In this document: positions 6,313 to 54,797 of the stretch, in pieces | Position numbering within the stretch: position 1 is the stretch's first letter | Layout of the letters: every line of letters begins with the position of its first letter | Assembly: GCA_040772005.1 (NCBI GenBank) | Contig: JAXGYZ010000002.1 | Span: 573,061 to 637,060 of the forward strand | DNA from: Anaerolineae bacterium | GTDB taxonomy: Bacteria; Chloroflexota; Anaerolineae; CG2-30-64-16 | Reading direction: 5' to 3' | DNA: 64,000 bases | Program-made: the position numbers and the translations under genes | Notes under the pieces: generated by a model | Told to the model about the DNA's origin: nothing | Databases searched by the model: none | The model's input: the letters and a program-made list of their open reading frames with translations, nothing else

Positions 6313-6435
6313 ATCGCTTCACGATTGTGCGCGGGCCACATCCTTCGACTGGTGACTGTGGGCCGGCGAGGTTGAGCCGTACACCCGCTCAGGATGCTCC
6401 GCGCATCTGGATTTGCTGATAGTGCGGGGTTGAGA

Positions 6436-7919: not shown

Positions 7920-7923
7920 GGAC

Positions 7924-8013
7924 GATTGAAGATTGAAAATTGAAGATTGAAGATTACAGACGAGGCGGCCATGTTTTGGCAATCTTCAATCTGTAATCTT
8001 CAATCTTCAATCC
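7924..8013. repeat. GATTGAA heptamer-repeat element forming a long perfect hairpin (gattgaagattacaga...tctgtaatcttcaatc)
   Basis: Tandem GATTGAA units in both arms; begins immediately after the gdh stop codon. Related copies at 12033-12106, 42848-42877 and 34635-34690. Confidence 0.7.
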
Positions 8014-8031
8014 GTAATCGTGGAGGGTGTG

Positions 8032-11170: not shown

Positions 11171-13135
11171 TCAGCCTGCTGCAGGGGGCGTGTGCTGGGG
11201 AGGTGCACCGTCGTGCTGATAGGCGGGCACGAGGATGCGGAAGGAGGCCTCGAGTGCGGCCGTGTCGCCGCGATAGGCGGCCTCGATCAGCCGCGCGACC
11301 TCCGGCTCCAGGAGGTCCTGCCGGCCGTTCTGCGCGACGAAAATCTTCTCGTGCCGGGTACGGCCATACTCCTCATCGGCTGCGAACAGCTCCTCGAACA
11401 GCTTCTCGCCGGGGCGCAGGCCCGTGAAGCGAATCTCGATGTCGTGCTCCGGCTCCAGGCCCGACAGCCGGATCAGGTCGCGCGCCAGGTCGACGATGCG
11501 GACGGGCTGGCCCATGTCGAGCACGAAGACCTCGCCGCCGTGGCCGAGCGCCGCGGCCTGGAGCACGAGCTGGACCGCCTCGGGGATGGTCATGAAGTAG
11601 CGGCGCACGTCGGGGTGCGTCACGGTGACGGGCCCGCCCGCGGCAATCTGGCGCTGGAAGAAGGGCACGACACTGCCGCGACTGCCGAGCACGTTGCCGA
11701 AGCGCACGGCGACGTAGCTGCAGCCGGTCTGCCGCGCGGCGGCCTCGACGAGCAGCTCCGCGATCCGCTTCGTGACGCCCATGACGTTGGTCGGGTTGAC
11801 GGCCTTATCGGTGGAGATGAGGACGAAGCGCTCGACCCCGGCAGCAATGCTGGCCTCGACCACGCGCTGCGTGCCCAAGATGTTGTTGAGCACCGCGTCG
11901 ACCGCGTTGTCTTCCATCAGCGGGACATGCTTGTGCGCGGCCGCATGGAAGACGATCTCGGGACGGTGCTCCGCAAAGACCGCGGCCAGGCGTTCGGGGA
12001 AGCGGATGTCGGCGATCACGGGTTGCAGATGCGATTGAAGATTGAAGATTGAAGATTGGAGGTCTGCGGGGTTCGTCTTCAATCTGGAATCTTCAATCTT
12101 CAATTCGTTATGGATGTCGAAGATGCTGTTTTCGCCGTGGCCGAGGAGGATGAGGCTGGCGGGGCTGCAGCGGAGAATCTGGCGGCAGAGCTCGGAGCCG
12201 ATGGAGCCGCCCGCGCCGGTGACGAGGACGCGCTTGCCGCGGAGCAGCGCGGCCACCTGGGCCGTGTCGGTCTGGATGGGGGCGCGGCGCAGGAGGTCCT
12301 CGATCTGGACATCGCGCAGTTGCTGGAGGCGGACGGCGCCGCCCAGCAGCTCGTAGATGCCCGGCACGGTGCGGGCGCGCACGCCCGCGGCCTCGCAGAT
12401 CTCCACGATATCGCGGATGGCCGCGCCGGGTGCGCTTGGCATGGCGATGATGACCTGCTCGATATGGTGTTCGCGGGCCAGGTCGGGGATGCGCTCGCGG
12501 CCGCCCAGGACGCGCACGCGCTGGAGCAGCATTCCGTGTTTGAGCGGGTCGTCGTCCACGAACCCGAGGGGCACCAGGCCGGTCTGCGGGTTCTGGCGCA
12601 GCTCCCGCAGCACCATTGCGCCCGCCTCGCCCGCACCGGCTATGAGGACATGCTGGAGCGGGCCGCCGGGAGCGCCGGCCTTGCGCGCGCGCTGTGCACC
12701 GAGCGCCCCGGCGCGCAGCGCGAAGCGTGACCCGGCAATGACCGCGAAGGTCACGAGCACGTCGATCAATGGGATGGAGCGCGGGACGCCGGGGGAGAGC
12801 AGCGCAGGGAAAATCGCCTGCGTGCCGAGGAAGAGCGCCCCCTGGGCCAGCGCACCGAGTGCCGCAGACCAGACGAGCAGCATCATCTCGTCCGGCCCCG
12901 CGTACTGCCAGTAGCGCGTGTAGAGGCCGAGCACGCTGAAGATGGGTATCTTGATGAATGGGGCCGCGATTACAAAGATCAACATCGTCCGCACGTAAGG
13001 CTGGAGCTGCGCGGTGTCCAGGCGCAGGGCGAACGCGAGCACCGCAGCCATCGGCACGAGCAGCATATCAGCTGCCAGCAGGTGCCGGTTGCGCACGCGC
13101 AGCAGGAGCTGCGTAAGGCCATATGAGTGTGTCAT
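11171..13135 (-). CDS. Membrane-anchored nucleoside-diphosphate-sugar 4,6-dehydratase/epimerase (CapD/WbpM/PglF family)
   Basis: N-terminal TM helices, then LVTGAGGSIGSEL Rossmann, then the catalytic STDKAVNPTNVMGVTKR. Start (13135) overlaps the upstream stop (ATGA). Contains an in-frame heptamer-repeat insertion. Confidence 0.8.
   Translation of the reverse strand: MTHSYGLTQLLLRVRNRHLLAADMLLVPMAAVLAFALRLDTAQLQPYVRTMLIFVIAAPFIKIPIFSVLGLYTRYWQYAGPDEMMLLVWSAALGALAQGALFLGTQAIFPALLSPGVPRSIPLIDVLVTFAVIAGSRFALRAGALGAQRARKAGAPGGPLQHVLIAGAGEAGAMVLRELRQNPQTGLVPLGFVDDDPLKHGMLLQRVRVLGGRERIPDLAREHHIEQVIIAMPSAPGAAIRDIVEICEAAGVRARTVPGIYELLGGAVRLQQLRDVQIEDLLRRAPIQTDTAQVAALLRGKRVLVTGAGGSIGSELCRQILRCSPASLILLGHGENSIFDIHNELKIEDSRLKTNPADLQSSIFNLQSHLQPVIADIRFPERLAAVFAEHRPEIVFHAAAHKHVPLMEDNAVDAVLNNILGTQRVVEASIAAGVERFVLISTDKAVNPTNVMGVTKRIAELLVEAAARQTGCSYVAVRFGNVLGSRGSVVPFFQRQIAAGGPVTVTHPDVRRYFMTIPEAVQLVLQAAALGHGGEVFVLDMGQPVRIVDLARDLIRLSGLEPEHDIEIRFTGLRPGEKLFEELFAADEEYGRTRHEKIFVAQNGRQDLLEPEVARLIEAAYRGDTAALEASFRILVPAYQHDGAPPQHTPPAAG
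12033..12106. repeat. GATTGAA heptamer-repeat hairpin element lying in-frame inside the capD-like CDS (encodes ...ELKIEDSRLKTNPADLQSSIFNLQS...)
   Basis: Same element as 7924-8013. The reading frame of the host gene is maintained across it. Confidence 0.65.
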
Positions 13136-24539: not shown

Positions 24540-25104
24540 CCGAATAGGACACTGATTGAACTGATTGGACTGATCTTCATGTTCTTTTCAGATTCGGCTT
24601 CAGGTGATTCTCGAAGATCTTGCGCACAACGCGAGGCTTGGGACCGAAGTTGACGACCAGTCCGACCTCATAGGGCGTGGCTTTCAGATAGTTCAGCAGC
24701 TGCGCCGCATGGTCCGGTGATATCTCGCTGGCAGCCTTGAGCTCCAACAACACGAGGTCGTTCACGACGAGGTCGGCAAAGTACTCACCCACGATACAAC
24801 CGTCGAAGAACACCGAGATCGGCCGCTGCTGCTGAACCTGCAGGCCATGCGCCCGGAGCCGCATGGCGAAGGCATTCTCATAGACCTTCTCCAGGAAGCC
24901 ATAGCCCAGGGCGTTGTAGACGTCGTAGAATATCTGGATTATCTGCCGGGTCAGCGCACTGTGCTTGTAAGTGGAGACCTCGTACGAACCCCGTTCCTCG
25001 TCCAGTTCGATCATGGTCACATCACTCATAAGACTGATGACGCTAACTTATCAGAATCAGATCAGGTAAATCAGCGTCATCAGTTCAATCAGCGTCCTAT
25101 TCGG
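24540..25104. mobile_element. 565-bp cassette bounded by 24-bp inverted repeats CCGAATAGGAC(A/G)CTGATTGAACTG, carrying a GxxExxY-family gene
   Basis: Left repeat at 24540-24563; right repeat at 25081-25104 is its reverse complement (23/24 identical). The interior is AT-richer than the flanking rfbA and sat. Confidence 0.5.
24577..25029 (-). CDS. GxxExxY protein (PD-(D/E)XK nuclease-like superfamily, TIGR04256-type)
   Basis: [13 protein letters not shown]... and [14 protein letters not shown] core. About 150 aa, typical of the family. Confidence 0.65.
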
Positions 25105-29623: not shown

Positions 29624-29798
29624 CGGCGCGTTTCATACTGGGGGCGAACGCGGCCAGCGCGAATACGCGAATGGTGCTGCGGCGCCGGGCACGGATACAC
29701 GAATATCCCGCCGCGGCGCACACGATTCGCGTATTCGTGGCGCGCCAGCGCATTCGTTTATCCGCGATGGCCGCGCCCCCAACGTGAAACGCACCCAC
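29624..29798 (+). repeat. Family-A structured palindromic repeat, copy 2
   Basis: About 95% identical to 2067-2247. Confidence 0.6.
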
Positions 29799-29895: not shown

Positions 29896-30276
29896 GCCGA
29901 TTGGGGGTGGGCGAAGTCATGTTGCAATCGGGCCTTCCACCTGGCAGTTGAAACTGCGGCTACCCCTACGAAACCGGCCTACGCCGGTTAGTTCCAGTCT
30001 GCGTAGGCAGACTTCGCAAGGGTAGCCGCAACTTCAGTTGCCAGGCGGGTTCACCTGGCGCACTATGAAACCGCCCTGCCGATTGGAGGACAGGGCGAAG
30101 TCATGTTGCAATCGGGCCTTCCACCTGGCAGTTGAAACTGCGGCTACCCCTACGAAACCGGCCTACGCCGGTTAGTTCCAGTCTGCGTAGGCAGACTTCG
30201 CAAGGGTAGCCGCAACTTCAGTTGCCAGGCGGGTTCACCTGGCGCACTATGAAACCGCCCTGCCGATTGGGGGACA
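29896..30276 (+). repeat. Tandem array (about 2.1 copies, period 184 bp) of the family-D highly structured element
   Basis: Units start at 29912 and 30096, with a partial unit end at 29896-29911. Each unit has a ~26-bp outer stem (cctggcagttgaaactgcggctaccc / gggtagccgcaacttcagttgccagg) with G·U wobbles. Each also has two perfect 7-bp hairpins (aaccggc-CTAC-gccggtt; agtctgc-GTAG-gcagact). Confidence 0.7.
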
Positions 30277-30340
30277 GGGCGCTAAAGCGCCTACTACGAA
30301 CGGGAGCAAGCTATTGGTTTGTAGCAGGCGCAGGTGCGCC
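30277..30340. repeat. Family-E hairpin repeat (GGCGCTAAAGCGCC-TACTACGAAC ... GTTTGTAGCA-GGCGCAGGTGCGCC)
   Basis: Related copies at 40634-40715 and 54720-54781. Confidence 0.5.
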
Positions 30341-31343: not shown

Positions 31344-32377
31344 AGATTGTCGTTGACGCCATGGGCGGTGACCACGCGCCGGGCGTCGTGGTGGCAGGCG
31401 CGGTGGCCGAAGCGCGCGAGCGCGGCACGGCCCTGATCCTGGTAGGCATCGAGGAGCAGGTGCGCGCGGAGCTGGCGAAGCACGGCGACACGAGCGGGCT
31501 GCCCATCGAGGTGGTCCACGCTTCCGAGGTGGTCGCGATGGACGAGCACACGATGGCCGTGCGCGCGAAGCGGGACTCGTCGCTCATGGTCGGGATGCGA
31601 CTCGTCAAGGAGGGCCGAGCGGATGCCTTTGCCTCCGCGGGCAACTCCGGCGCGGTCATGGCTGCGGCGCTGTTCGCCCTGGGGCGCATCGCCGGCGTCG
31701 AGCGGCCCGCGCTGGGCAGCATCTACCCTGCCTCGCCTGAGCCATGCCTGGTCATCGACATCGGGGCCAATGCAGACTGCAAGCCGGAGTATCTCGTCCA
31801 GTTTGCGCACATGGGCCACCTGTATGCCCGGAAGATGTTCGGGCTGGCGCAGCCGAAGGTCGGCATCATCTCGAACGGCGAGGAAGCCGACAAGGGCAGC
31901 ATGCTCATCCGCGAGACCTATCCCCTGCTGAAAGCCAGCGGGCTCAACTTCGTGGGCAATGTCGAGGGCAAGGATATCGGCCGCGGCGCGGCCAATGTCG
32001 TCGTCACCGACGGGCTGACGGGCAATGTCATCGTGAAGCTGAGCGAGGGGCTGTTCTCGTTCATGCTCAAGTTTCTCAAACGGCAGTTCACCGCGGGCGT
32101 GCGCAACAAGGTGGGCCTGCTGCTGCTGCTGCCCGCGCTCGTTGCGGCGCTGCCGGGCCTGGCCGTGCTGTGGCCGACCGTGAAGGGGCTGAAGCGGCGG
32201 GTGGACTGGCGGGAGATCGGCGGCGCGCCGCTGCTCGGCGTGAACGGGGTCGTGGTCATCGGCCACGGCCGGAGCGATGCCCGCGCCATCCAGACCATGA
32301 TCCAGATGGCCGAGAAGAGCGCGCAGCAGGAGCTGGTGCAGGCCATCCGCGCTGAGTTTGCGCGCACGAGACCGTAG
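31340..32377 (+). CDS. plsX: Phosphate acyltransferase PlsX
   Basis: MKIVVDAMGGDHAPGVVV...; similarity to PlsX along the full length. Confidence 0.9.
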   Translation: MKIVVDAMGGDHAPGVVVAGAVAEARERGTALILVGIEEQVRAELAKHGDTSGLPIEVVHASEVVAMDEHTMAVRAKRDSSLMVGMRLVKEGRADAFASAGNSGAVMAAALFALGRIAGVERPALGSIYPASPEPCLVIDIGANADCKPEYLVQFAHMGHLYARKMFGLAQPKVGIISNGEEADKGSMLIRETYPLLKASGLNFVGNVEGKDIGRGAANVVVTDGLTGNVIVKLSEGLFSFMLKFLKRQFTAGVRNKVGLLLLLPALVAALPGLAVLWPTVKGLKRRVDWREIGGAPLLGVNGVVVIGHGRSDARAIQTMIQMAEKSAQQELVQAIRAEFARTRP

Positions 32378-32398
32378 CTGGTTAATTCCAGCCGATCT

Positions 32399-32580
32399 GT
32401 AATAACCTGGCTCCGGCGCATCCTGAGCGGAGAGCGTCAAGGGCAGGCGTAGCCTGATCCATGGACGCTCGCAGCCGAAGGAGCGCCGCCCGGATGCCAG
32501 CCCGGCTCCTTCGACTACGCCTCGCCCTGGGGGCAAGGCTCCGCTCAGGCTGCCTGGCTGGCCGAACTATCAAAGACTCG
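32399..32580. repeat. Family-F nested-palindrome repeat, copy 1
   Basis: Shares the catcctgagcggag...gtcgaaggagcgcc...ccggctccttcgac...ctccgctcagg architecture with 36822-36992 and 51975-52155. Confidence 0.55.
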
Positions 32581-32641
32581 CAGGTGTCTCAAACCGTAGC
32601 CGCCTGAGCCGGCAGCGGAATCCAGAGAGCTGGCAGGAGTT

Positions 32642-33928
32642 ATGACGATCACTGAGGATAAGCAGGCCCGCCGCGCGAATGGCCCAGGGGCGCGGCGGGT
32701 GGTCATCACAGGGTTGGGTGCAATCACGCCGGTCGGCCATACGGCCCCGGACACCTGGGCGGCCTTCGTGGCCGGACGCTCCGGCGTCGACCGAGTCACC
32801 AGCTTCGATGTCTCCCAGTATCCCGCGCAGATCGCGGCGGAGGTCAAGGGGTTCGACCCGACCGCATATATCCCGGCCAAGGAAGCGCGGCGCATGGCGC
32901 GCTGCAGCCAGCTTGCAGTCGTGGCGGCGCGCGAGGCCGTGGCGGATGCCGGCATCGACTGGGCGCAGGAGGACCGCGAGCGTGCGGGCGTCATCCTGGG
33001 CACGGGCATGGGCGGCACGGATATCCTCATCGAGCCGATTGGCCGCTACGGCAGAGACGGCATGGTGCGCGTCACGCCGTACGTGGCGCTGGAACACCTG
33101 GCAAACATGCCGGCGTTTCACGTGGGCATCGAGCACGGCTGCCTGGGCACCCTCTCGACCATCGTGACCGCGTGCGCGGCGGGGACGCAGGCCATCGGCG
33201 AGGGGCTGGAACTCATCCGCCGCGGGAAGACGGACATCGTGCTGGCCGGCGGCACGGAGTCGCAGGTCAACATGCTCTTCTTCACCGGCTTCAGCGCCAT
33301 GCGGGTGCTCTCCACGCGCAACGGCGACCCGCAGGCCGCGAGCCGCCCCTTCGACGCACAGCGCGACGGCTTCGTCATCGGTGAGGGCGCGGGCGTGTTC
33401 GTGCTGGAGGAGCTGGAACACGCACGGCGTCGCGGCGCGCGCATCTATGCCGAACTGCTCGGCCAGGCCGCGGGCGCGGATGCCTATCACGTCGCGCAAC
33501 CGGAAGCGACCGGCGTCGGTCCCGCGCGCACGATGCGCTGGGCGCTGGAAGACGCGGGGGTCGCGCCGGAGGCGGTGGACTACATCAACGCGCACGGCAG
33601 CGCCACGGTGCAGAATGACCTGGCAGAGACCGCGGCCATCAAACGCGTGTTCGGGGAGCACGCGTACCGGCTGGCGGTCAACAGCACCAAGAGCATGATC
33701 GGCCACTGCTTCGGCGCAGCGGGCGCAGTCGAGGGGCTGGCGACGGTCATGGCAGTCTACACGGATACGATCCACCCGACCATCAACCTCCAGGAGCCGG
33801 ACCCCGGCTGTGACCTGGATTATGTACCGAACGTCGCGCGGCAGCGCCGCGTGAATGTCGCCATTTCGAATTCTTTCGGCCTGGGCGGTCAAAACGCCTG
33901 CATCGTTCTCGGGAAATGCACGGAGTAA
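32642..33928 (+). CDS. fabF: 3-oxoacyl-[ACP] synthase II
   Basis: Active-site region ...ACAAGT... with HGSAT and NSFGLGGQNA motifs; 428 aa. Confidence 0.9.
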   Translation: MTITEDKQARRANGPGARRVVITGLGAITPVGHTAPDTWAAFVAGRSGVDRVTSFDVSQYPAQIAAEVKGFDPTAYIPAKEARRMARCSQLAVVAAREAVADAGIDWAQEDRERAGVILGTGMGGTDILIEPIGRYGRDGMVRVTPYVALEHLANMPAFHVGIEHGCLGTLSTIVTACAAGTQAIGEGLELIRRGKTDIVLAGGTESQVNMLFFTGFSAMRVLSTRNGDPQAASRPFDAQRDGFVIGEGAGVFVLEELEHARRRGARIYAELLGQAAGADAYHVAQPEATGVGPARTMRWALEDAGVAPEAVDYINAHGSATVQNDLAETAAIKRVFGEHAYRLAVNSTKSMIGHCFGAAGAVEGLATVMAVYTDTIHPTINLQEPDPGCDLDYVPNVARQRRVNVAISNSFGLGGQNACIVLGKCTE

Positions 33929-36754: not shown

Positions 36755-36821
36755 CAGATTCACCCCAAGATTACGATGGGCTCACGCCAAGACGCCAAGG
36801 ACTGTAATGCCAACCCATCTT

Positions 36822-36992
36822 TGATAACCTGGTTGCGGCGCATCCTGAGCGGAGGGCGTCAGGGCCAGGCGCAGCCGGGCCCCGACGCCCGCAGTCGAAG
36901 GAGCGCCGTCAGTCCGGCTCCTTCGACTCCGCCTCACCCTGCGGGTGAGGCTCCGCTCAGGATGCCTGGCTGGCTGAATTATCAAGGATTCG
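36822..36992. repeat. Family-F nested-palindrome repeat, copy 2
   Basis: About 85% identical to 32399-32580, including the flanking ataacctggyt...gcctggctggcygaaytatcaa segments. Confidence 0.55.
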
Positions 36993-37165
36993 TTGGAATT
37001 ACAACGCAAAGAGCGCAAAGCAATTGACTTATAAACTGACGCCAGGGTGAGACCCCCAGAGCCGAGTTGGTGCTCGGCGGTCCGACGGGCTGTGGATTCC
37101 ACCCTTGAAAGAACTAAAGTGTTTCTTTGCGTCCTTGGCGTCTTTGCGCGAGACCGCTCTTTCAA

Positions 37166-38496: not shown

Positions 38497-38625
38497 GTGT
38501 TAGAAAAGGACGCGCTTCATGTTGGGAACGCGGCCATCTCGGATAAGCGAATGCGCTTGCGCGCCACGAATACGCGAACCGCGTGCGTCGTGGAGGGGAT
38601 ATTCGCGATGGCCGCGTTCGCCCTC
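38497..38625 (-). repeat. Family-A repeat, copy 3 (reverse orientation, internal about 35-bp deletion)
   Basis: Its reverse complement aligns with 2067-2247 and 29624-29798. Confidence 0.5.
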
Positions 38626-38653
38626 AGAATGGAACAAACCCGTCTTCTTGGTT

Positions 38654-40576
38654 CTATAGAGCGGCGGCGCGCAGCCAGACGCGCATCTCGCCGGGCGCGC
38701 GGTTGGCCCAGGCGTAATACGGGACCGCCAGCAGCTCGACCGCGCGCGTGGCGGGCGGCTCGGTGCGATAGAGGTCCCCCTCCGGCCAATCCGCTGCGTC
38801 GACCACGCGGGCCGGCCCGCGCAGCACGACCACGCCGCCCAACAGGTCGGGGTGGTCCTCGTGGACGAATTGCCCGCCGGTCACGGCCGCGGGGTCGACC
38901 GAGAGGCGGTCCAGCGCGCCATCCGCGGCGCCGTGGTCCGCGGCCTCGAGGCAGTAGACGAGCGGCCCGCGCTGGAGCGCGACGCGGCCCTGGAGCTGGC
39001 GGATGGCCGGGTGCGGGTAGACGGTGCGGATGGGCATCGCCATGTCGAACTCCACGACGTCGCCCGGCTGCCACTCGCACGTGAGCGCGAGATAGCCGTT
39101 TGCGGCGGGCGCGGCGTCGGGCAGCGGCTCGCCGTTGATGTGCACCTGCCAGTCCGTGCACCAGCCCGGCACGCGCAGGTGCAGGGTGAACCGCTGCGCG
39201 GCCGCCGGCTCGACCGTGATGCGCACCGCGCCGTCCCACGGATAGCGCGTGACCTGGCGCAGCGTCACGGGACGGCCTGCGACGTCGAGTGTCGCGGTGG
39301 AGCTGCCGTAGAGGTGGACCCACGCGGCACCCGGGCCGGTCGAGTAGAAGTAGCCGCCGAGGCCGGCAAGGACACGCGCGATGTTCGGCGGGCAGCAGGG
39401 ACAGAGGAACCACGGCTCGCGCTGGCGGTCGCCCGCGCTGGCGAGCGGGTTCTCGTAGAAGAAGGCGTCGCCGGCGAGCGAGACGCCGCTGAGGAAGCCG
39501 TTGTACAGCCCGCGCTCCAACACGTCCGTGTAGCGGCGGTCGCCCTCGAACTGGGCCAGGCGGTGCGCCCACAGCATCAGGCCGATGGTGGCGCAGGTCT
39601 CCGCGTAGGCGGTCTCGTCGGGCAGGTCGTAGTCGAGGGTGAAGCCCTCGTTGTGGCGCGACGGGCCGATGCCGCCGGTCAGGTACATGCGGCGGCCGAT
39701 CAGGTTGTCCCACAGGCGGCCGGCGGTGGCGAGCAGCGTGGCGTCGCGGTTCTCGTGCGCCAGGTCGGTCGCGGCGCTGAGCAGGTACACCGCGCGCACC
39801 GCGTGGCCCACGACCTTCTCCTGCTCGCGCAGCGGCACGTGCGCCTGGCAGTACTCGTAGGTCTTGGCCCAGAAGGCCGCGGGGTCCTCCCCGCGCGCCC
39901 GCGCCTCGATGTCGTAGTAGTGCGGCTGGGTCCCCCGCTCGTCCACGAAGTAGGTCGCCAGGCGGAGATAGCGGTCGTTGCCGGTCGCGCGGTAGAGGCG
40001 GACGAGGGCCAGCTCGATCTCGGGGTGGCCGGGATAGCCGGCCAGCTTGCCCGGCCCGCGTCCGAAGGTGGCGTCGATGTGGTCGGCATAGCGACAGAGG
40101 GCATCCAGCAGCTTGCGGTCGCCGGTGGCCTCGGCGTGTGCAACCGCGGCCTCCATCCAGTGCCCGGCGCAGTAAAGCTCGTGCCAGTCGCGCAGGTTCT
40201 TCCAGCGCATGTCGGGCTGCGTGCGGATGAAGTGGGTGTTCAGGTAGCCGTCGGGCTGCTGTGCGGCGACGACCTTATCCACCACGGCATTGACGATGCC
40301 CGCAAGCGCGGGATCGGGATGCACGGCGAGGGAATAGCTGGCGGCCTCCACCCACTTCGCAGGGTCGGAGTCACCGAAAATCAGGACGATGGGCGACGGG
40401 ACCGGGCGCTCGAACTCGAGGTCGAACGCGGCGATGCGGCCGGTCTCCTCCAGCTTGCGGTAGATGTGGGGGAGGGTGACGGTGCGGTTCGTCTCGATGC
40501 GGGGCGACCAGAAGCCATCCCCGAAGCGGACGCTCTTGTAGGACACGGGAGTGAGCTGTTGTTGCGGCGCGGACAT
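38654..40576 (-). CDS. Glycoside hydrolase family 127 (beta-L-arabinofuranosidase-like, DUF1680)
   Basis: 640 aa. Cys-rich zinc/catalytic motif [10 protein letters not shown], as in HypBA1. AAGGAGAG RBS. Confidence 0.8.
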
Positions 40577-40633
40577 GGTTCTCTCCTTGCGCGATTCCCG
40601 CCGGGCGGGACCTGTGTTGGCATTGTAACGCAG

Positions 40634-40715
40634 GGGCGCTAAAGCGCCTACTACGAACCGGGTTGAGGGCGTGGGCGAGAGTTTGTAGTGGGCGCTTCAG
40701 CGCCTGCTACGAACC
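40634..40715. repeat. Family-E hairpin repeats (two adjacent units)
   Basis: ggcgctaaagcgcctactacgaacc ... gtttgtagtgggcgcttcagcgcctgctacgaacc. Confidence 0.45.
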
Positions 40716-40722
40716 ACCAGGG

Positions 40723-41685: not shown

Positions 41686-42867
41686 ATGCCCGAACCATCG
41701 GTCCTGGGGGTCTTCGGTGCGGTGATTCTCGCGCGGCTGCTCCTGCCGCTGCTGATCCCGAAATATCCGCTGCCCGCGATCCTCCTCTGCCTCCTCGTGG
41801 ACGGGGTGGACCAGACCGTCTTCCAGACTTTCACGAACGTGCCGCTCGACGGCTATCAGAGCTTCGACAAGGCGCTCGACATCTATTACCTGGTCATCGC
41901 ATATCTCTCGACGCTGCGCAACTGGCGGAACAGCCATGCATTCGGCATCAGCCGTTTTCTGCTCTATTACCGGCTCGTCGGCGTCGTGCTGTTCGAGCTG
42001 TCGGAGTGGCGGCCTCTGCTGCTCATCTTCCCGAACACTTTCGAGTACTTTTTTATTTACTACGAGGCTGCGCGCAGCGGGTGGCACGCGTCGCGGCTCT
42101 CGCGCCGGACACTGCTCCTGGTAGCCGGGGGCATCTGGGTGTTCATCAAGCTGCCGCAGGAGTGGTGGATCCACATCGCGCAACTCGACGTGACCGACCT
42201 GGTCAAGACCAAGCTGTTCGGCGCAGCGGCCAATGCATCCTGGGGCGAGGCCGTCGCAGCCGCGCCACTCGTCCTGGCCGCGCTGCTCGCTACGGTGCTG
42301 CTGCTGGCGTTCGCCGCCTGGCGGCTGGTCATTCCCCGGCTGCCGCGGCCGGAGCACTCGTTCAGGCTGTCGGCGGGCCCGCCGCCCGCGGCCGCGGACA
42401 CCGCGGAGGAACGCCGCACCATCTTCGCCTACACGCGGCGGCCGTTGGACCGCATCGCGCTGGAGAAGGTCGTGCTCGTGACCCTGGTCACGCTGATTTT
42501 TGCGCAAATCCTGCCCGACTTGCAGTCGAGCAACCTGCGGCTGGCGCTGGGCGTGACAGTCATCGCGCTCATCAATTCGGTGGCGAGTTACGGACTGGCG
42601 CACCGCGGCTACGGCTGGCAGAACGCGCTCGTGCATTTCGCCGTACTTGGCACGGTGAACGCCGGTGTCGCGGCTGTCGCTTACCTGCTGTTCGACCTCG
42701 GCCGGCCCATCAACCTGGGGGATGCGTTGTTCCTGTTGCTGCTGCTTACATTGCTGGTCACGCTCCACGACTACTACCAGCCGATGCACGCGGTGCGGTT
42801 CGACGCAGAGGCGCGGGCGGCGAGCGCGATGGTGGGCGAGGGCGGACGATTGAAGATTGAAGATTGA
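41686..42867 (+). CDS. Hypothetical polytopic membrane protein (393 aa)
   Basis: GGAGTGG RBS. About 9 predicted TM segments. The C-terminal ...GGRLKIED* and stop codon are supplied by the GATTGAA repeat. Confidence 0.55.
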   Translation: MPEPSVLGVFGAVILARLLLPLLIPKYPLPAILLCLLVDGVDQTVFQTFTNVPLDGYQSFDKALDIYYLVIAYLSTLRNWRNSHAFGISRFLLYYRLVGVVLFELSEWRPLLLIFPNTFEYFFIYYEAARSGWHASRLSRRTLLLVAGGIWVFIKLPQEWWIHIAQLDVTDLVKTKLFGAAANASWGEAVAAAPLVLAALLATVLLLAFAAWRLVIPRLPRPEHSFRLSAGPPPAAADTAEERRTIFAYTRRPLDRIALEKVVLVTLVTLIFAQILPDLQSSNLRLALGVTVIALINSVASYGLAHRGYGWQNALVHFAVLGTVNAGVAAVAYLLFDLGRPINLGDALFLLLLLTLLVTLHDYYQPMHAVRFDAEARAASAMVGEGGRLKIED

Positions 42868-42877
42868 AGATTGGAGA
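42848..42877. repeat. GATTGAA heptamer repeat (4.3 units) spanning the stop of the upstream gene and the RBS of the next
   Basis: gattgaagattgaagattgaagattggaga. Confidence 0.6.
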
Positions 42878-43537
42878 ATGGAAACGAACATGAGCCGGTT
42901 AGATTTGTTGGCACAGATTCGGGAGCAGGTGGGGGAGCGGCTGGAGGATGGTCGGGTGCAGGGGCGCATGACTTTCTGCATCGAGGACGGCGCGCGGCTC
43001 GGCCCGGAGGCGCGGGAGCCTGCCGGTTACCGCCACGGTTCGCACTTTCACCCGCGCGCGTTCATCTTCGACCCCGTCACGCGGTTCGAGTTCCGGCCCG
43101 ACGGCGAGCTGCTACACTTTGCGGTGGGCGGGCTGCTGTGGCGGGAGGAAGGGGACGGGCCGCGCTACTGCCTGTTCCGGCGGCGGATGCACCCGACGGG
43201 CTATTACACGCTGCCGGCGGGCCACCTGGAACTCGGTGAGACGCCGGACCTGACGCTGCGCCGCGAGGTGTACGAGGAGACCGGCCTGGCAGTGCTCTCC
43301 GCGGAGCTGCTGTTCGAGGGCGAGCTGCCGGACGACTGCCGCCGCGGGGCAGATTACCACTACTGGCACGCGTACCTGTGCCGCTGCATCGGGGAGCCGG
43401 CGCTCTGCAACGAGTCGGACATCGTCGGGTGGTACACGCGTGCAGAGATCCTGCGCGACCTGCCGCTGACCTACCCGACCGGCGTGATTTGCGAGCGGCT
43501 GTTCGGTGAGTGGCCGGGCCGCGTGCGGGGGAGATAA
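42878..43537 (+). CDS. NUDIX hydrolase
   Basis: Nudix box GHLELGETPDLTLRREVYEETGL. Start at 42878 (GGAGA RBS) or 42890. Confidence 0.65.
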   Translation: METNMSRLDLLAQIREQVGERLEDGRVQGRMTFCIEDGARLGPEAREPAGYRHGSHFHPRAFIFDPVTRFEFRPDGELLHFAVGGLLWREEGDGPRYCLFRRRMHPTGYYTLPAGHLELGETPDLTLRREVYEETGLAVLSAELLFEGELPDDCRRGADYHYWHAYLCRCIGEPALCNESDIVGWYTRAEILRDLPLTYPTGVICERLFGEWPGRVRGR

Positions 43538-49520: not shown

Positions 49521-51890
49521 TTATCCGTTGCGTCGCCGTGCCCACACCGCCAGCCCCACAATGCCCAACAGACCGATCGCTGCGGCCACCCATCCGACGC
49601 GCCACGGCGCGGGGCTGAAGGTCAATTCGACCTGGTGCTGGCCCGCGGGCACGGCCACGCCCTGAAACAGGTAGTTCGTGCGCCACGGCTCGCCCGCAGG
49701 CGCGCCGTCGATCGTCACGCGCCAGCCAGGATACCAGACCTGGCTTACGAAGATCAGTGCCGGAGCATCCGCATTGACCGAGAATGACAGGCGGTTGCGG
49801 CCTTGCCGGATGTCGCTGACCATGCCGCTGCCGCCCGCGGGGATCGCCGCGGTGGACGGCGCCTGGATGACCGCGGTCACCGTCGGGTCGAACCCGGCCG
49901 CGGTGACCGCCTGGAGCGCGGCGTCGGGCGACGGCTGGAACACGATGTCACGGACGATGAACGCGCGGGGGAGCGCCTGCCGGTTCTCGTAGACGTTCAG
50001 ATCGGGGTCGCCGTCGAAGGCCAGCGCGAACTTGCCCCAGTCCAGCTCGACATTCTTCTTCGCGATGACGTAGCGCACGTTCAGCAGATCGTAGAGCCGC
50101 GTGGAGCGCGAGCCGAGGCTGTTCCAGTAGCGCTCGAAGTCGGCCAGCACGAGCGGGTTCGCGACCCCGGCCACGTCCTCCAGCCCGTAGAGCAGCGCGG
50201 TGTCCGGCTGCCAGAGGGACTCGATCTGCGTCCGGCTGTCGATGCGGAACGGACCGGGCTGCGCCGCCAGGTAGGCCGCAATCGGCCCCTGTTCGAAGCT
50301 CTGCGAGGGGTCCTGGGTGCCGAGGTCCTGGTAAGCGGCGAGGCTGGCGACATCGAGGAAGATCAGCCCCGCAGCCAGCCAGCCGAGCGTGTTGGCGCGC
50401 GGCCAGCCGGAGCGCCACGCGGTCAGCCAAAGCCAGGACGCCGCGAGCAACCCCGCGAAGGTGATCACCGCGATGAGCGTGATGGAGATGCGGATGACGA
50501 TGGCCGGGTCGCGGTCCTGGACGAGCAGCAGCGCGAGGTAGGCCAGCGGGACTGCAACGGCCCAGGCCGCGGCGGTCGCGCGGCCCACCAGCCGCCAGGC
50601 GCGGTTGAAGACGGCTGCCGCGGGGCCGCTCAGCGGGCGGAGCAGGATGTCCAGCCCGAGCGCGGCCAGCCCGGCCAGCGCGAAGTCGGTCAGCAGGACG
50701 AACCGGGCCGGCGCGCGGAGCTGGCCGAACCCGGGCAGCAGCGTCAGCCAGCCGTGCGGGATGGCGTAGATGCCGAGCGCGAGGAGGAAGCTGCCCGCCG
50801 CAAGCGCGGCGAGCGCCCAGGTCCGCCGCTCACGGCGCAGCGCCAGCGCCAGCCCGGCCAGGATCAGCGGCAGGATGCCCAGGTAGCCGATCTCGACGCG
50901 CGGCCACGCGCCCCAGTGGAACTGCGGCCCGCGGCCGAAGAAACCGGGGATCAGCCAGCCGATCCACTGCGCGGGCGACAGGGAATAGCCCGCGGTCTCC
51001 GCATAGCTCCAATCCGCGCGGGCCGTCTCGCCCGCGAGCTGGAGCGAAGGCAGGAGGACCGGCGCGGCCAGCAGCACCGCAACGAGGAAACAGACAGCCA
51101 GCGTCAGCAGCGCGGCCGCGCCGCGCGCCTTGACGTCCGGCTCTGCGCGCGCCAGCCACACCTCGCACGCAGCATAGCAGGCCAGGGCAAGCGCGATGAA
51201 CAGCGTGGCCTGGATGTGGCCGGCGAGCGTCGCGACGGCCAGCAGCACGCCGGCGAGCGCAGCCCGGATAAGACGCCGGGTGCCCGGCAACGCTGCGCTG
51301 CCGGGCGCGAAGCCAAATGCCCAGAAGACCCAGGGCAGCCAACTGGCGACCGCGTTGAAATTGAGGTTGCCGAAGTGGGTCACGAACACATCGGAGAACA
51401 TGAAGGCCAGCGCACCCGCCAGGGCCGCAATGCGCCGCGTGCGGAGTCCGCGCGCCAGCCAGAGGTACATGCCTGCGCCCGCAAACCAGATGTGCGCGAT
51501 GCTCAACCCCTGCAGCGCGCTGTAGGGGAACGCGGGCCGGAGCAGGAAGAGCAGGAGGTTGGGCGGATAGAGGAAGCCGGCCTGGATGTCGCCCACATGG
51601 GGCGCGCCGCCGTACAGGTGCGGGTTCCACAGGGGCAGCGCGCCGTCGGCCAGCGCGGCAGCCGTGAAGCGATACGTTGGATAGAGGAAGGAGACCAGGT
51701 CACCGCCATCCGCCGGCATCCAGTTCTGACCGGCCAGGACGCGCCAGAAGAAGCCCAGCGTGGCGAGGGCCAGCACGCCCACCGCCAGCAGGTCCCGGTG
51801 CCAGGGGGTTGCCAGCCGGCCGCGGCGGTAGGCCGTCCAGACGCCTGCCAGCACCGCCAGCCAGAGCACAATCACGAAGAGCCAGCCCAT
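49521..51890 (-). CDS. YfhO-family large polytopic membrane protein (putative glycosyltransferase-like)
   Basis: 789 aa from MGWLFVIV (AAGGA RBS). Many TM helices, then a C-terminal extracytoplasmic domain. The upstream in-frame extension crosses a MITE and was rejected. Confidence 0.6.
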   Translation of the reverse strand: MGWLFVIVLWLAVLAGVWTAYRRGRLATPWHRDLLAVGVLALATLGFFWRVLAGQNWMPADGGDLVSFLYPTYRFTAAALADGALPLWNPHLYGGAPHVGDIQAGFLYPPNLLLFLLRPAFPYSALQGLSIAHIWFAGAGMYLWLARGLRTRRIAALAGALAFMFSDVFVTHFGNLNFNAVASWLPWVFWAFGFAPGSAALPGTRRLIRAALAGVLLAVATLAGHIQATLFIALALACYAACEVWLARAEPDVKARGAAALLTLAVCFLVAVLLAAPVLLPSLQLAGETARADWSYAETAGYSLSPAQWIGWLIPGFFGRGPQFHWGAWPRVEIGYLGILPLILAGLALALRRERRTWALAALAAGSFLLALGIYAIPHGWLTLLPGFGQLRAPARFVLLTDFALAGLAALGLDILLRPLSGPAAAVFNRAWRLVGRATAAAWAVAVPLAYLALLLVQDRDPAIVIRISITLIAVITFAGLLAASWLWLTAWRSGWPRANTLGWLAAGLIFLDVASLAAYQDLGTQDPSQSFEQGPIAAYLAAQPGPFRIDSRTQIESLWQPDTALLYGLEDVAGVANPLVLADFERYWNSLGSRSTRLYDLLNVRYVIAKKNVELDWGKFALAFDGDPDLNVYENRQALPRAFIVRDIVFQPSPDAALQAVTAAGFDPTVTAVIQAPSTAAIPAGGSGMVSDIRQGRNRLSFSVNADAPALIFVSQVWYPGWRVTIDGAPAGEPWRTNYLFQGVAVPAGQHQVELTFSPAPWRVGWVAAAIGLLGIVGLAVWARRRNG

Positions 51891-51974
51891 GTGCTGCTCA
51901 TCCTTTCGGGGGTCAGGGGTGCGATCTGAGCGGATGATACCACAGCCGCGGGGAAAAGCGGAATGGGTTACGGG

Positions 51975-52155
51975 CAGGAATTCCAAATGTAGGCGCACGG
52001 CGTCGGTGCAGCCGACGCACGGCATCCTGAGCGGAGGCCCGCAGGGCCGCAGTCGAAGGATCGCCACGGTGCAGGCGTGCTTCGACTACGTGCGCCGCTG
52101 CGCGGCGTCCATCCGCTCAGCATGCTTGCACCCTCGCGCACATTTGGAATTCCTG
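51975..52155. mobile_element. 181-bp MITE (family-F core) with perfect 16-bp TIRs CAGGAATTCCAAATGT and 9-bp target-site duplication GGTTACGGG (51966-51974 / 52156-52164)
   Basis: The inverted and direct repeats are exact in the sequence. No ORF inside. Sits in the yfhO promoter region. Confidence 0.65.
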
Positions 52156-52198
52156 GGTTACGGGACCGCGGTGTTTGTGAGTCCGCGGCATTTCAGGT

Positions 52199-52888
52199 AT
52201 GATGCCAGTCACTCAGATACACGAGGTTCTCCGATTGAAGCTTGATATCCGCCGCCTCTTCTGGCCGCTCATCGCACTCTGTGCAGCCCTTACGCTCATC
52301 GTGCTGGCCGTCATGCCCGCGGAAAAGACCATCGGCCAGGTCATTAAGATCGTCTATCTGCACGGCGCGCTGAGCCGCGCGGGGATGGTGGGGCTGGTGG
52401 CTGCGGGTGTGGCCGCGCTGATCTATTTCGTGGCACGGCGTCCTGCTGCAGGGGCGTGGGTGGAAGGGCTGCTCTTCAGCGGCTGGGCCTTCTGGACCGC
52501 GCATTTCATCGTCAGCATGCCGGCCACCCGGCTGACCTGGGGACCGTGGATCGCCTGGGGCGAGCCGCGCGTCACGATGACGCTGCAGGTCATCGGCGCG
52601 GGCCTGGTCATCATCGTGGTCACGCGCTTGATCGGCAGCCGGCTGTTCACGGCTGCGGCGGCGCTGCTGTTGGCCGTGGCAGTCGCCTTCATTGCCGGGC
52701 AGACGGGCGTCATCCGTCATCCGTTGGACCCCATCGGCGGCTCACCCTCGACGACGCTGCGCCTGGTGTACCTGTTATTGTTGATTCCCGTCATCGCAGC
52801 GATGTTTATGGTGGCCTGGCGACTCAGCGCGAATGTGGCCGAGCCGCTGGCGGCAGCGTCTCATAAGGAGACCGGGAGGACAGCATGA
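52199..52888 (+). CDS. Cytochrome c assembly family membrane protein (CcmC/CcsA-like, W-rich motif)
   Basis: WGPWIAWGEPRV resembles the WGxxWxWDPKE tryptophan-rich heme-handling motif. About 6 TM helices; 229 aa. Tentative. Confidence 0.45.
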   Translation: MMPVTQIHEVLRLKLDIRRLFWPLIALCAALTLIVLAVMPAEKTIGQVIKIVYLHGALSRAGMVGLVAAGVAALIYFVARRPAAGAWVEGLLFSGWAFWTAHFIVSMPATRLTWGPWIAWGEPRVTMTLQVIGAGLVIIVVTRLIGSRLFTAAAALLLAVAVAFIAGQTGVIRHPLDPIGGSPSTTLRLVYLLLLIPVIAAMFMVAWRLSANVAEPLAAASHKETGRTA

Positions 52889-54719: not shown

Positions 54720-54781
54720 GGTTCGTAGTAGGCGCAGGTGCGCCAAATCAGGCACGGGCGCTAAAGCGCCTACTACAAACC
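54720..54781. repeat. Family-E hairpin element with 16-bp inverted termini GGTTCGTAGTAGGCGC / GCGCCTACTACAAACC
   Basis: Lies between convergent nnr and ytxH-like genes, so it may serve as a bidirectional terminator. Confidence 0.5.
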
Positions 54782-54797
54782 GATGGATCAGTTCTCC

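Follow-up and report, generated by a model that had tools for sequence, protein, structure and literature searches.

A four-way-junction palindromic repeat from a Chloroflexota genome, best read as a large, symmetric variant of the hairpin repeats that accompany Ssn-type GIY-YIG nucleases

We analysed a 64-kb stretch of DNA from an Anaerolineae bacterium (the window; G+C content 64.7%). It contains three full copies of a nested palindromic repeat, at approximately 32379-32593, 36803-37004 and 51975-52155, and a half-copy at 6342-6396. The three copies have a core in common, and this core is probably a DNA-level palindromic repeat, of the kind found with genes for small single-domain GIY-YIG endonucleases specific for single-stranded DNA (ssDNA), the Ssn family. 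Its most likely identity is a gene-less copy of an Ssn nuclease's repeat; an RNA gene and an ordinary transposon remnant are both less likely. Judged by sequence and predicted fold, it is best interpreted as a new variant of the hairpin repeats reported for Ssn nucleases in 2025, larger than these and symmetric. In this genome cores also travel as passengers in two unrelated transposon-type shells.

The core is built of two inverted copies of a unit, U, which consists of [N]CCTGAGCGGAG, a variable hairpin, and then CGNAGTCGAAGG[N']. It is roughly 100-135 bases long, with a median of 110 nt over the 130 elements described below. With DNA energy parameters, single-stranded core DNA of either strand is predicted to fold into a four-way junction, in which a closing stem, P1, surrounds three hairpins. 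In the core consensus P1 is formed by CCTGAGCGGAG paired with CTCCGCTCAGG and P2 by AGTCGAAGG paired with CCTTCGACT; the window copies have GCATCCTGAGCGGAG paired with CTCCGCTCAGGATGC as P1 and CGCAGTCGAAGGAGC...GCTCCTTCGACTCCG as P2/H2. The remaining two hairpins, H1 and H3, are of free sequence. The core of copy 2 folded with z-scores of -8.8 and -10.0 on the two strands, and none of 200 shuffled sequences folded as well. Corresponding values were -2.3 (plus strand) and -5.6 (minus strand) for copy 1, and -4.0 and -3.9 for copy 3. An earlier note on this DNA had described a two-level palindrome. Its outer motif and its inner motif, GTCGAAGGAGCGCC, are present in all three copies; the structure as a whole is a four-way junction, with the additional local hairpins H1 and H3. 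The features in the window are as follows, a strand being assigned to the half-unit only.

6342-6396, minus strand: singleton half-unit, GCATCCTGAGCGGGT, arm, AGTCGAAGGATG, found by motif and unit searches and absent from the earlier note.
32379-32593: copy 1, shell and core, an older, decayed version of the composite in copy 2 (whole element 77% identical to copy 2).
32418-32553: core of copy 1, four-way junction, P1 arms at 32418-32432 and 32539-32553 (motif matches, DNA fold).
36803-37004: copy 2, shell and core, terminal inverted repeats TGTAATGCCAACCCATCTTTGATAA / TTATCAAGGATTCGTTGGAATTACA (arms 36803-36827 and 36979-37003).
36840-36965: core of copy 2 (P1 36840-36854/36951-36965; H1 36855-36889; P2/H2 36890-36931; H3 36932-36950).
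51966-51974: left 9-bp target-site duplication of copy 3, GGTTACGGG (read from the sequence).
51975-52155: copy 3, a MITE with terminal inverted repeats CAGGAATTCCAAATGT (arms 51975-51990 and 52140-52155).
52022-52125: core of copy 3, four-way junction with short H1 and H3 arms (motif matches, DNA fold).
52156-52164: right 9-bp target-site duplication of copy 3, GGTTACGGG (read from the sequence).

The sequence CATCCTGAGCGGAG or its reverse complement matched eight times in the window at up to two mismatches, compared with 0.88 matches expected, and the paired arms of the three copies account for six of these. Motif matches and alignment agree on three related copies at the places first described, and all of them are intergenic, as had been reported. 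Public gene calls for copies 1 and 2 were taken from the near-identical contig JAXGJG010000011.1 (GCA_040770385.1). Copy 1 lies between plsX and the next gene on the same strand, and copy 2 between genes for an amidohydrolase and a ybaK-like protein, both on the minus strand. Copy 3 is located between plus-strand ORFs at 49803-51929 and 52199-52888. The copies are more divergent than the 15% or so first estimated: core identity is 80% between copies 1 and 2, and 63-66% between either of them and copy 3.

The three copies had been described as one family, which they are not, because their outer parts differ. Copies 1 and 2 have one outer inverted-repeat shell in common, to which the shell of copy 3 is unrelated (44-48% identity). 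The flanks that copies 1 and 2 were said to share are present (repeat families D12 and D13 of the window) and are themselves inverted repeats, reaching TGTAAT...ATTACA at 36803-37004. The ends of copy 2 are 25-nt inverted sequences, TGTAATGCCAACCCATCTTTGATAA and an imperfect complement. Copy 1 is flanked by direct CCGTAGC sequences at 32372-32378 and 32594-32600, the left one containing the plsX stop codon, and this pair may be a 7-bp target duplication. The possible duplication around copy 2 is imperfect (CGCCAAG / CGCAAAG, six of seven positions); a 7-bp target duplication, perfect at copy 1 and 6/7 at copy 2, is suggestive for this shell. The terminal inverted repeats of copy 3 are 16 nt long and perfect, and its shell was also found in three of the loci described below (L035, L065 and L101). 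Two further Chloroflexota genomes carry independent insertions of the shell, each with its own 9-bp duplication, AAACGCAGA in L065 and TTCACCTG(C/T) in L035. The shell of copy 3, which thus duplicates its target at three independent sites, is therefore a classical MITE, and the earlier identification of copy 3 as a MITE holds.

The core behaves differently from the shells. It was found within at least eight different inverted-repeat shells, and at most loci it has no shell at all; outward of CCTGAGC the palindrome continues for a median of only 5 nt. In 120-odd elements, no target duplication of 4-9 bp was detected around the core at offsets of 0-14 nt. The direct repeats seen near the core were limited to one of 4 bp at offset 15, and to others of 3 bp that were no more frequent than expected by chance. 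The reading of the core as a transposon-end remnant is not supported, since it has no target duplication of its own. The combination by which MITEs with terminal inverted repeats are recognised, inverted repeats together with a duplication of fixed length, was found in the shell of copy 3 and not in the core.

To find relatives of the core, we scanned 185,579 species genomes with the pattern CTGAGCGGAG-N14-44-CGAAGG-N40-70-CCGCTCAG, which has 24 specified bases. Matches were obtained in at least 116 genome stretches from at least 13 phylum-level groups, compared with a handful expected by chance according to our own rough estimate. By the taxon given in each sequence record, the matches listed include 66 from Chloroflexota, nine from Alphaproteobacteria, six from Actinomycetota and five from Verrucomicrobiota. 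Also among the matches listed are four each from Acidobacteriota, Bacteroidota, Cyanobacteriota and Myxococcota, three each from Planctomycetota, Armatimonadota and Bacillota, two each from Gemmatimonadota and Eremiobacterota, and one unclassified. Isolates among the matches listed are Granulicella rosea, two Gordonibacter, Leptolyngbya PCC 6406, Dyadobacter and Sphingomonas arenae, and many MAGs contain several core copies per genome. Features that the pattern does not specify (H1, H3 and the extensions of P1 and P2) were present in all matches listed. A single match was found in 2.9 million viral contigs, so phages are not obvious carriers of the core. A relaxed search of the 116 listed loci together with the window (loci are given L numbers here) yielded 130 elements. 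Of 272 units, 236 were in 118 inverted pairs and 37 were unpaired. Tandem arrays of units (L010, L077, L088 and L098) and recombinant elements (for example L003 and L100) were also present.

Covariation was examined in these elements. The arms of H1 and H3 are diverse, with 80 different first 5-mers among 130 elements; the first six positions of their stems are nonetheless paired in 62-89% of cases, compared with 33-54% in a partner-swapped control. When a plain MAFFT alignment of 31 elements was submitted to RNAalifold, the four-way junction was recovered unguided. In this structure 17 of the 33 pairs showed changes on both sides, and 92.3% of cells were paired, compared with 77.9% after shuffling and 36-40% with slid partners. 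Cells changed on both sides numbered 154 against 49±6 expected, and none of 500 shuffles reached the observed values. The stems are preserved, as the earlier note had stated, and compensatory change maintains them far past the window. Decay of the palindromes in copies elsewhere, which that note had named as the finding that would count against it, was not seen: copies outside the window keep their stems. The two halves of a pair almost never have the same hairpin: H1 approximates the reverse complement of H3 in three of 130 elements. In 95% of units, compared with 76% after shuffling, the base preceding CCTGAGC and that following CGAAGG are complementary, which suggests that a single unit may also be able to close on itself, a possible second conformation. 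Covariation in this within-unit pairing extends over only 1-2 bp, plus a GCAT/ATGC subfamily.

The two strands of the elements were also compared. In 102 of 130 elements, both strands carry the conserved blocks. G·U pairs within elements were split between the strands as in a binomial distribution (chi-square 122.9, 126 df, p = 0.56), and the 50 elements located between co-directional genes had 2.36 G·U-type pairs in the sense and 2.42 in the antisense direction (p = 0.74). No Rfam family matched the window at the gathering threshold, and matches at E <= 10 were at chance level only; in eight related loci Rfam gave no match save one unrelated tRNA. The lack of a target duplication of its own, of a strand bias in G·U pairs and of an Rfam match together indicate a DNA-level element. 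Most elements lie between genes. Tandem, convergent and divergent gene contexts numbered 50, 23 and 13, compared with 320, 92 and 93 in the background, a weak shift away from divergent spacers. The median distance to the 3′ end of a neighbouring gene was 33 nt. These contexts come from rough calls by a home-made gene caller, which missed or mis-stranded a few of about 20 public calls on L117, and the bias towards gene ends is weak. The role in RNA or at transcript 3′ ends implied by the earlier note is thus not borne out, the blocks and wobble pairs being strand-symmetric. Two other RNA-level candidates were rejected. A hammerhead-like ribozyme (CUGA...GAA...GUC) lacks the conserved G8/A9 positions and has no Rfam match, and resemblance to a CsrA site (GUCGAAGGAUGC) or Shine-Dalgarno mimicry (AAGGAG/CUCCUU) occurs in some subtypes only.

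The evidence linking the core to a nuclease comes from its neighbours. The first sign was that two singletons were directly followed by ORFs starting MPYRVYILECSDG... and MRQPVVYVLAS.... GIY-YIG ORFs abut an element in five of the 116 listed loci, which had been selected by element (L026, L046, L055, L111 and L112). In L055 the order is exactly CGTCGTCCTGAGCGGAG...AGTCGAAGGACCTTTTTT, ATG to TAA, AAAAGGTCCTTCGACT...CTCCGCTCAGGACGACG, that is unit, gene, unit, and the gene therefore occupies the P2 loop; a gene-less copy is located 160 nt upstream of this gene-bearing one. The four intact proteins are 95-103 aa long with PF01541 as their only domain, and the ORF in L112 is truncated at its 5′ end. 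The proteins have no family-level match in NCBIfam (one weak match was far under the cut-off), and their similarity to solved UPF0213 structures is weak (24 bits). In a tblastn search of a 7.3-Gb database, the L055 protein matched a gonococcal chromosome, a PLSDB entry mislabelled as a plasmid, with E = 1e-15 and 45% identity. The ORF matched is the gonococcal SsnA orthologue, 94 aa long and situated among 16 copies of the Neisseria repeat, the NTS. The proteins are 35-45% identical to this orthologue, the Chloroflexi-type proteins of L111 and L026 only 35-39%. Pairwise E values against it were 3e-25 for L055, 1e-22 for L046, 2e-14 for L111 and 4e-9 for L026, the last falling just short of the E < 1e-10 used to define SsnA homologues (PMC11893778).

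No GIY-YIG gene or remnant was found in the 64-kb window by ORF search or tblastn; one tblastn match, at 40256-40426, was rejected as spurious and antisense. The half-unit at 6342-6396 is of subtype CCTGAGCGGGTG.ACGGC.CAAC, which also occurs in a unit of L130 directly abutting the start of a GIY-YIG gene, and in units of L022, L034, L035 and L102. ORFs of at least 110 aa from the 116 listed loci were clustered, a cut-off that lies above the GIY-YIG genes of about 100 aa; the clusters near the elements were common paralogues such as ABC transporters, with no recurrent family among them. GC-rich palindromes as common as these are likely to give rise to spurious short ORFs, and full-text literature searches with sequence strings of the repeat and with spurious-ORF peptide strings found nothing relevant.

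The association was also tested in reverse, using 80 metagenome loci picked by protein similarity only. Units occurred at a density of 1.26 per kb within 250 nt of the gene, compared with 0.028 per kb elsewhere. Both flanks of the gene were available in 71 loci. The motif or its compact form (CCTGAGCYTGTCGAAG, also written CCTGAGC(C/T)TGTCGAAG) was beside the gene in 54 of them, and an inverted pair surrounded the gene in 33, of the long form in eight cases and of the compact form in 25. Long units are found mainly with the proteins most similar to the Chloroflexi type, and more distant homologues have the compact form. In L119, L118 and L055, gene-less and gene-bearing copies of the same contig have loop-proximal sequence in common past the conserved blocks; in L119 the common stretches measure 13 and 10 nt on the two sides.

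Ssn enzymes are 94-aa single-domain GIY-YIG proteins (CDD cd10448), which bind a hairpin repeat exclusively in ssDNA and cleave the DNA a few bases upstream of it (Chenal et al. 2025, Nat Commun, PMC11893778). The Neisseria repeat is the NTS, CGTCATTCCCGCGMAVGCGGGAATCYRG, which contains dRS3. The ssn genes of that study are flanked by repeats on at least one side in 71% of cases and on both sides in 42%; a resemblance to insertion sequences is noted in the same paper, in which transposition was not shown (PMC11893778). Like the NTS and the related SRM repeats, the core is multi-copy, mostly intergenic and hairpin-forming. In relatives, as in the published cases, a gene for a single-domain GIY-YIG protein of about 94 aa is flanked by inverted repeats in the order repeat, gene, repeat, and the type of repeat co-varies with the protein clade. 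The outer end of the core, TGTCATCC, resembles the NTS head, CGTCATTCC, and the proteins encoded beside it have the identity to gonococcal SsnA given above. The differences are in form and setting. The core is a branched four-way junction of about 100-135 nt, whereas Ssn repeats are simple hairpins of 20-50 nt. It is symmetric on both strands, whereas Ssn repeats are directional, with cleavage of ssDNA on one strand. Its blocks CCTGAGCGGAG and AGTCGAAGG are unrelated to the NTS stem. Among the matches listed it is dominant in Chloroflexota, and in this genome it is nested in transposon-type MITE shells. The published SRM pattern, HGTCWYN(0-2)YYVSBRHN(0-5)WNVSBRGN(0-2)RNCYNB, was derived from Neisseria-like repeats (PMC11893778); it matched neither any of the 130 elements nor any sequence in the window. 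In a positive control, nine of the NTS copies round gonococcal ssnA were recovered with it. The head of the pattern, HGTCWY, matched by itself, as TGTCAT, in 56 arms.

The same arms relate the core to the superfamily of CGTC/TGTC-tagged REPs, which includes Neisseria dRS3 and has no known transposase (Di Nocera et al. 2013, PMC3733652). In both, a TGTC tag is followed by a stem starting with AT (tTGTCAT in the 56 arms here), head-to-head dimers predominate, and the repeats are spread across phyla; that no dedicated transposase was found for those REPs is a further likeness. They differ in that the tagged REPs have a stem of 8-9 bp, a loop of 4-5 nt and a CCA tail (PMC3733652), whereas the core has a stem of 13-17 bp enclosing three further helices, and in that Chloroflexi core copies occur with GCAT in place of the tag.

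Four other explanations were weighed against the preferred one. The core might be a pre-existing repeat, maintained for a host function or moved by some other enzyme, into whose loop a selfish GIY-YIG gene has inserted by homing, which would make the window copies unoccupied targets. Homing endonucleases are numerous among GIY-YIG enzymes, the gene lies precisely in the P2 loop, and the repeats greatly outnumber the genes. The type of repeat, however, changes with the protein clade, F-type units accompanying the closest homologues and the compact form more distant ones. This is consistent with repeat and protein being a cognate pair, whether they came together by homing or by derivation. Ssn enzymes, moreover, bind the repeat itself (PMC11893778), and we regard homing as unlikely. 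A structured RNA, either cis-acting or a small RNA, whose four-way junction was selected for RNA folding and serves as a 3′-end stabiliser, processing site or riboregulator, could account for the strong covariation, the intergenic position and the short median distance to gene 3′ ends obtained with our rough calls. It is very unlikely in view of the identity of the conserved blocks on both strands, the absence of a strand preference of wobble pairs either within elements or by gene direction, and the lack of an Rfam match. The window copies also have no T-run after the stem, and the associated nuclease does not bind RNA (PMC11893778).

The remaining two alternatives are known classes of mobile DNA, and we give them still lower probability. 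Movement by a RAYT, an IS200-like Y1 HUH transposase, would fit the occurrence of inverted doublets, singletons and clusters of hairpin units, as in REP, REPIN and BIME sequences, the lack of a target duplication, and the existence of one protein gene for many gene-less copies. GTAG is present inside CGTAGTCGAAGG in about a quarter of units, and GTAG-tagged REP-like hairpins (family D9) occur elsewhere in the window. Here, however, GTAG is base-paired in the P2 stem and is not an unpaired tag. The ORF clustering described above gave no recurrent ORF of at least 110 aa near elements in the 116 listed loci, and the only gene that recurs beside them encodes a nuclease of the GIY-YIG type instead of a Y1 HUH enzyme. 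The two halves of the core carry different hairpins, H1 resembling the reverse complement of H3 in so few elements, and the core blocks are the same in many phyla whereas REPINs are lineage-specific; a RAYT is accordingly a very improbable agent. Least probable of all is that the copies are ordinary MITEs with terminal inverted repeats, the palindromes being remnants of the two ends of an insertion sequence with a DDE transposase. The shells, that of copy 3 above all, are indeed like bacterial MITEs such as Correia and Nezha: copy 3 has terminal inverted repeats, a 9-bp duplication recurring at independent sites, a length of about 180 nt and an intergenic position, and copies 1 and 2 have inverted 25-nt ends and possible 7-bp duplications. 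This explanation applies to the shells only. The conserved core is not a transposase-binding end; it is common to unrelated shells and shell-less at most loci, with little outward palindrome and no target duplication, and it is conserved across phyla with covarying arms.

The preferred reading, a gene-less Ssn-type repeat, suggests the following course of events. In relatives the nuclease gene is situated either in the P2 loop, with a unit on each side (U, gene, U), or with a whole element on each side, and on these grounds the window copies would be gene-less, MITE-like derivatives. A cognate nuclease, presumably encoded elsewhere in the genome, would bind the folded unit when the DNA becomes single-stranded, for example during replication, repair or DNA uptake. 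The bound enzyme would probably nick nearby, as Ssn enzymes do at their own hairpin repeats, and such nicking presumably underlies the spread of the repeat and any effect on the host. Binding, cleavage and mobility of the core are thus proposed by analogy with the published enzymes. A further-reaching proposal, which we put forward tentatively and regard as possible rather than probable, is that the window cores belong to the gene-less majority of an unrecognised, pan-bacterial class of mobile element. The sole protein of this class would be an ssDNA nuclease of the GIY-YIG type, about 100 aa long and encoded in the loop of the junction palindrome, and its members would move without target duplication via single-stranded intermediates. 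If this were true, their transposition chemistry would be additional to those of the DDE, HUH, serine, tyrosine and Cas1 enzymes now recognised.

These results imply that a large part of the Ssn family would use a different recognition module, CCTGAGC...GTCGAAGG. Among the matches listed this module is dominant in Chloroflexota, and it is found also in Acidobacteriota, Verrucomicrobiota, Actinomycetota, Cyanobacteriota and other phyla. It exists in a compact form and in the long, branched, symmetric form of the window copies, both of which the published SRM pattern misses. Matched gene-bearing and gene-less copies on single contigs provide material for testing whether these nucleases mobilise their repeats, and each pair of nuclease and repeat is a candidate new specificity for ssDNA-cutting tools.

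Small GIY-YIG genes were flanked by an inverted pair of a compact motif, CCTGAGC(C/T)TGTCGAAGG, in 25 of the 71 metagenome loci (L131, L135, L140, L163 and 21 others). Translations of the compact motif (PELVEG, LSLSKG and FDKLRAN) are frequent in spurious short ORFs. No paper was found in a full-text literature search with the peptide strings FDKLRANG and LSLSKGE and with the DNA motifs.

The gonococcal nuclease gene ssnA is represented by L198 (NZ_CP119140.1, 1880778–1884053), from a record that PLSDB labels as a plasmid but that is actually the 2.17-Mb chromosome of Neisseria gonorrhoeae. This chromosome contains an ssnA orthologue of 94 aa that lacks annotation, and 16 NTS repeats, the hairpin repeats of the Neisseria Ssn nucleases, lie within 1.6 kb around this gene.

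The window was compared with its near-identical public contig, JAXGJG010000011.1 (L117), over window positions 32642–33928 and contig positions 11303–12489. The two sequences differ, with a length difference of 47 nt between plsX and copy 2 of the core. The ORF for ketoacyl synthase (428 aa) is unbroken in the window, but the gene calls of the public record split it into two fragments.

Several further repeats were observed in the window, as follows.

Repeats and inverted repeats in the window
29909–30276, two tandem copies of a 184-nt unit, 99% identity
40718–40894, third copy of the 184-nt unit
2089–2236 and 29649–29796, copies of a 148-nt repeat
38503–38635, inverted partial copy of the 148-nt repeat
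30273–30303, 40630–40660, 40686–40716 and 54752–54782, GTAG-GCGCTTTAGCGCC hairpin repeat, reading on the reverse strand
7920–8021, 12029–12111 and 42830–42889, GATTGAAGATTGAAGATTG inverted repeats
24540–24585 and 25059–25104, inverted arms
316–848, 18-nt periodicity

The third copy of the 184-nt unit lies 10.6 kb from the tandem pair, with 87–91% identity, and every copy has internal inverted arms of 48 nt; the unit is another composite palindromic repeat family. The two copies of the 148-nt repeat are 98% identical and 27.5 kb apart, and this repeat also has an internal inverted repeat of its own (arms 2067–2113 and 2191–2237). The short GTAG-GCGCTTTAGCGCC hairpin looks like a GTAG-tagged REP of the RAYT-type class, and is separate from the four-way-junction core studied here. 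At the three GATTGAAGATTGAAGATTG sites, blocks of this sequence paired with its complement form inverted repeats of 30–35 nt. The arms at 24540–24585 and 25059–25104, each of 46 nt, are 80% complementary and separated by 473 nt, and may belong to another small mobile element. The 18-nt periodicity falls within a long ORF, and this stretch looks like repetitive coding sequence.

At two loci of a Phycisphaerae MAG (L003 and L100), some elements are perfect long palindromes, in which hairpin H1 is the reverse complement of hairpin H3. One element joins the left arm of one type to the right arm of another, which implies that elements have swapped parts at the conserved stem in their centre.
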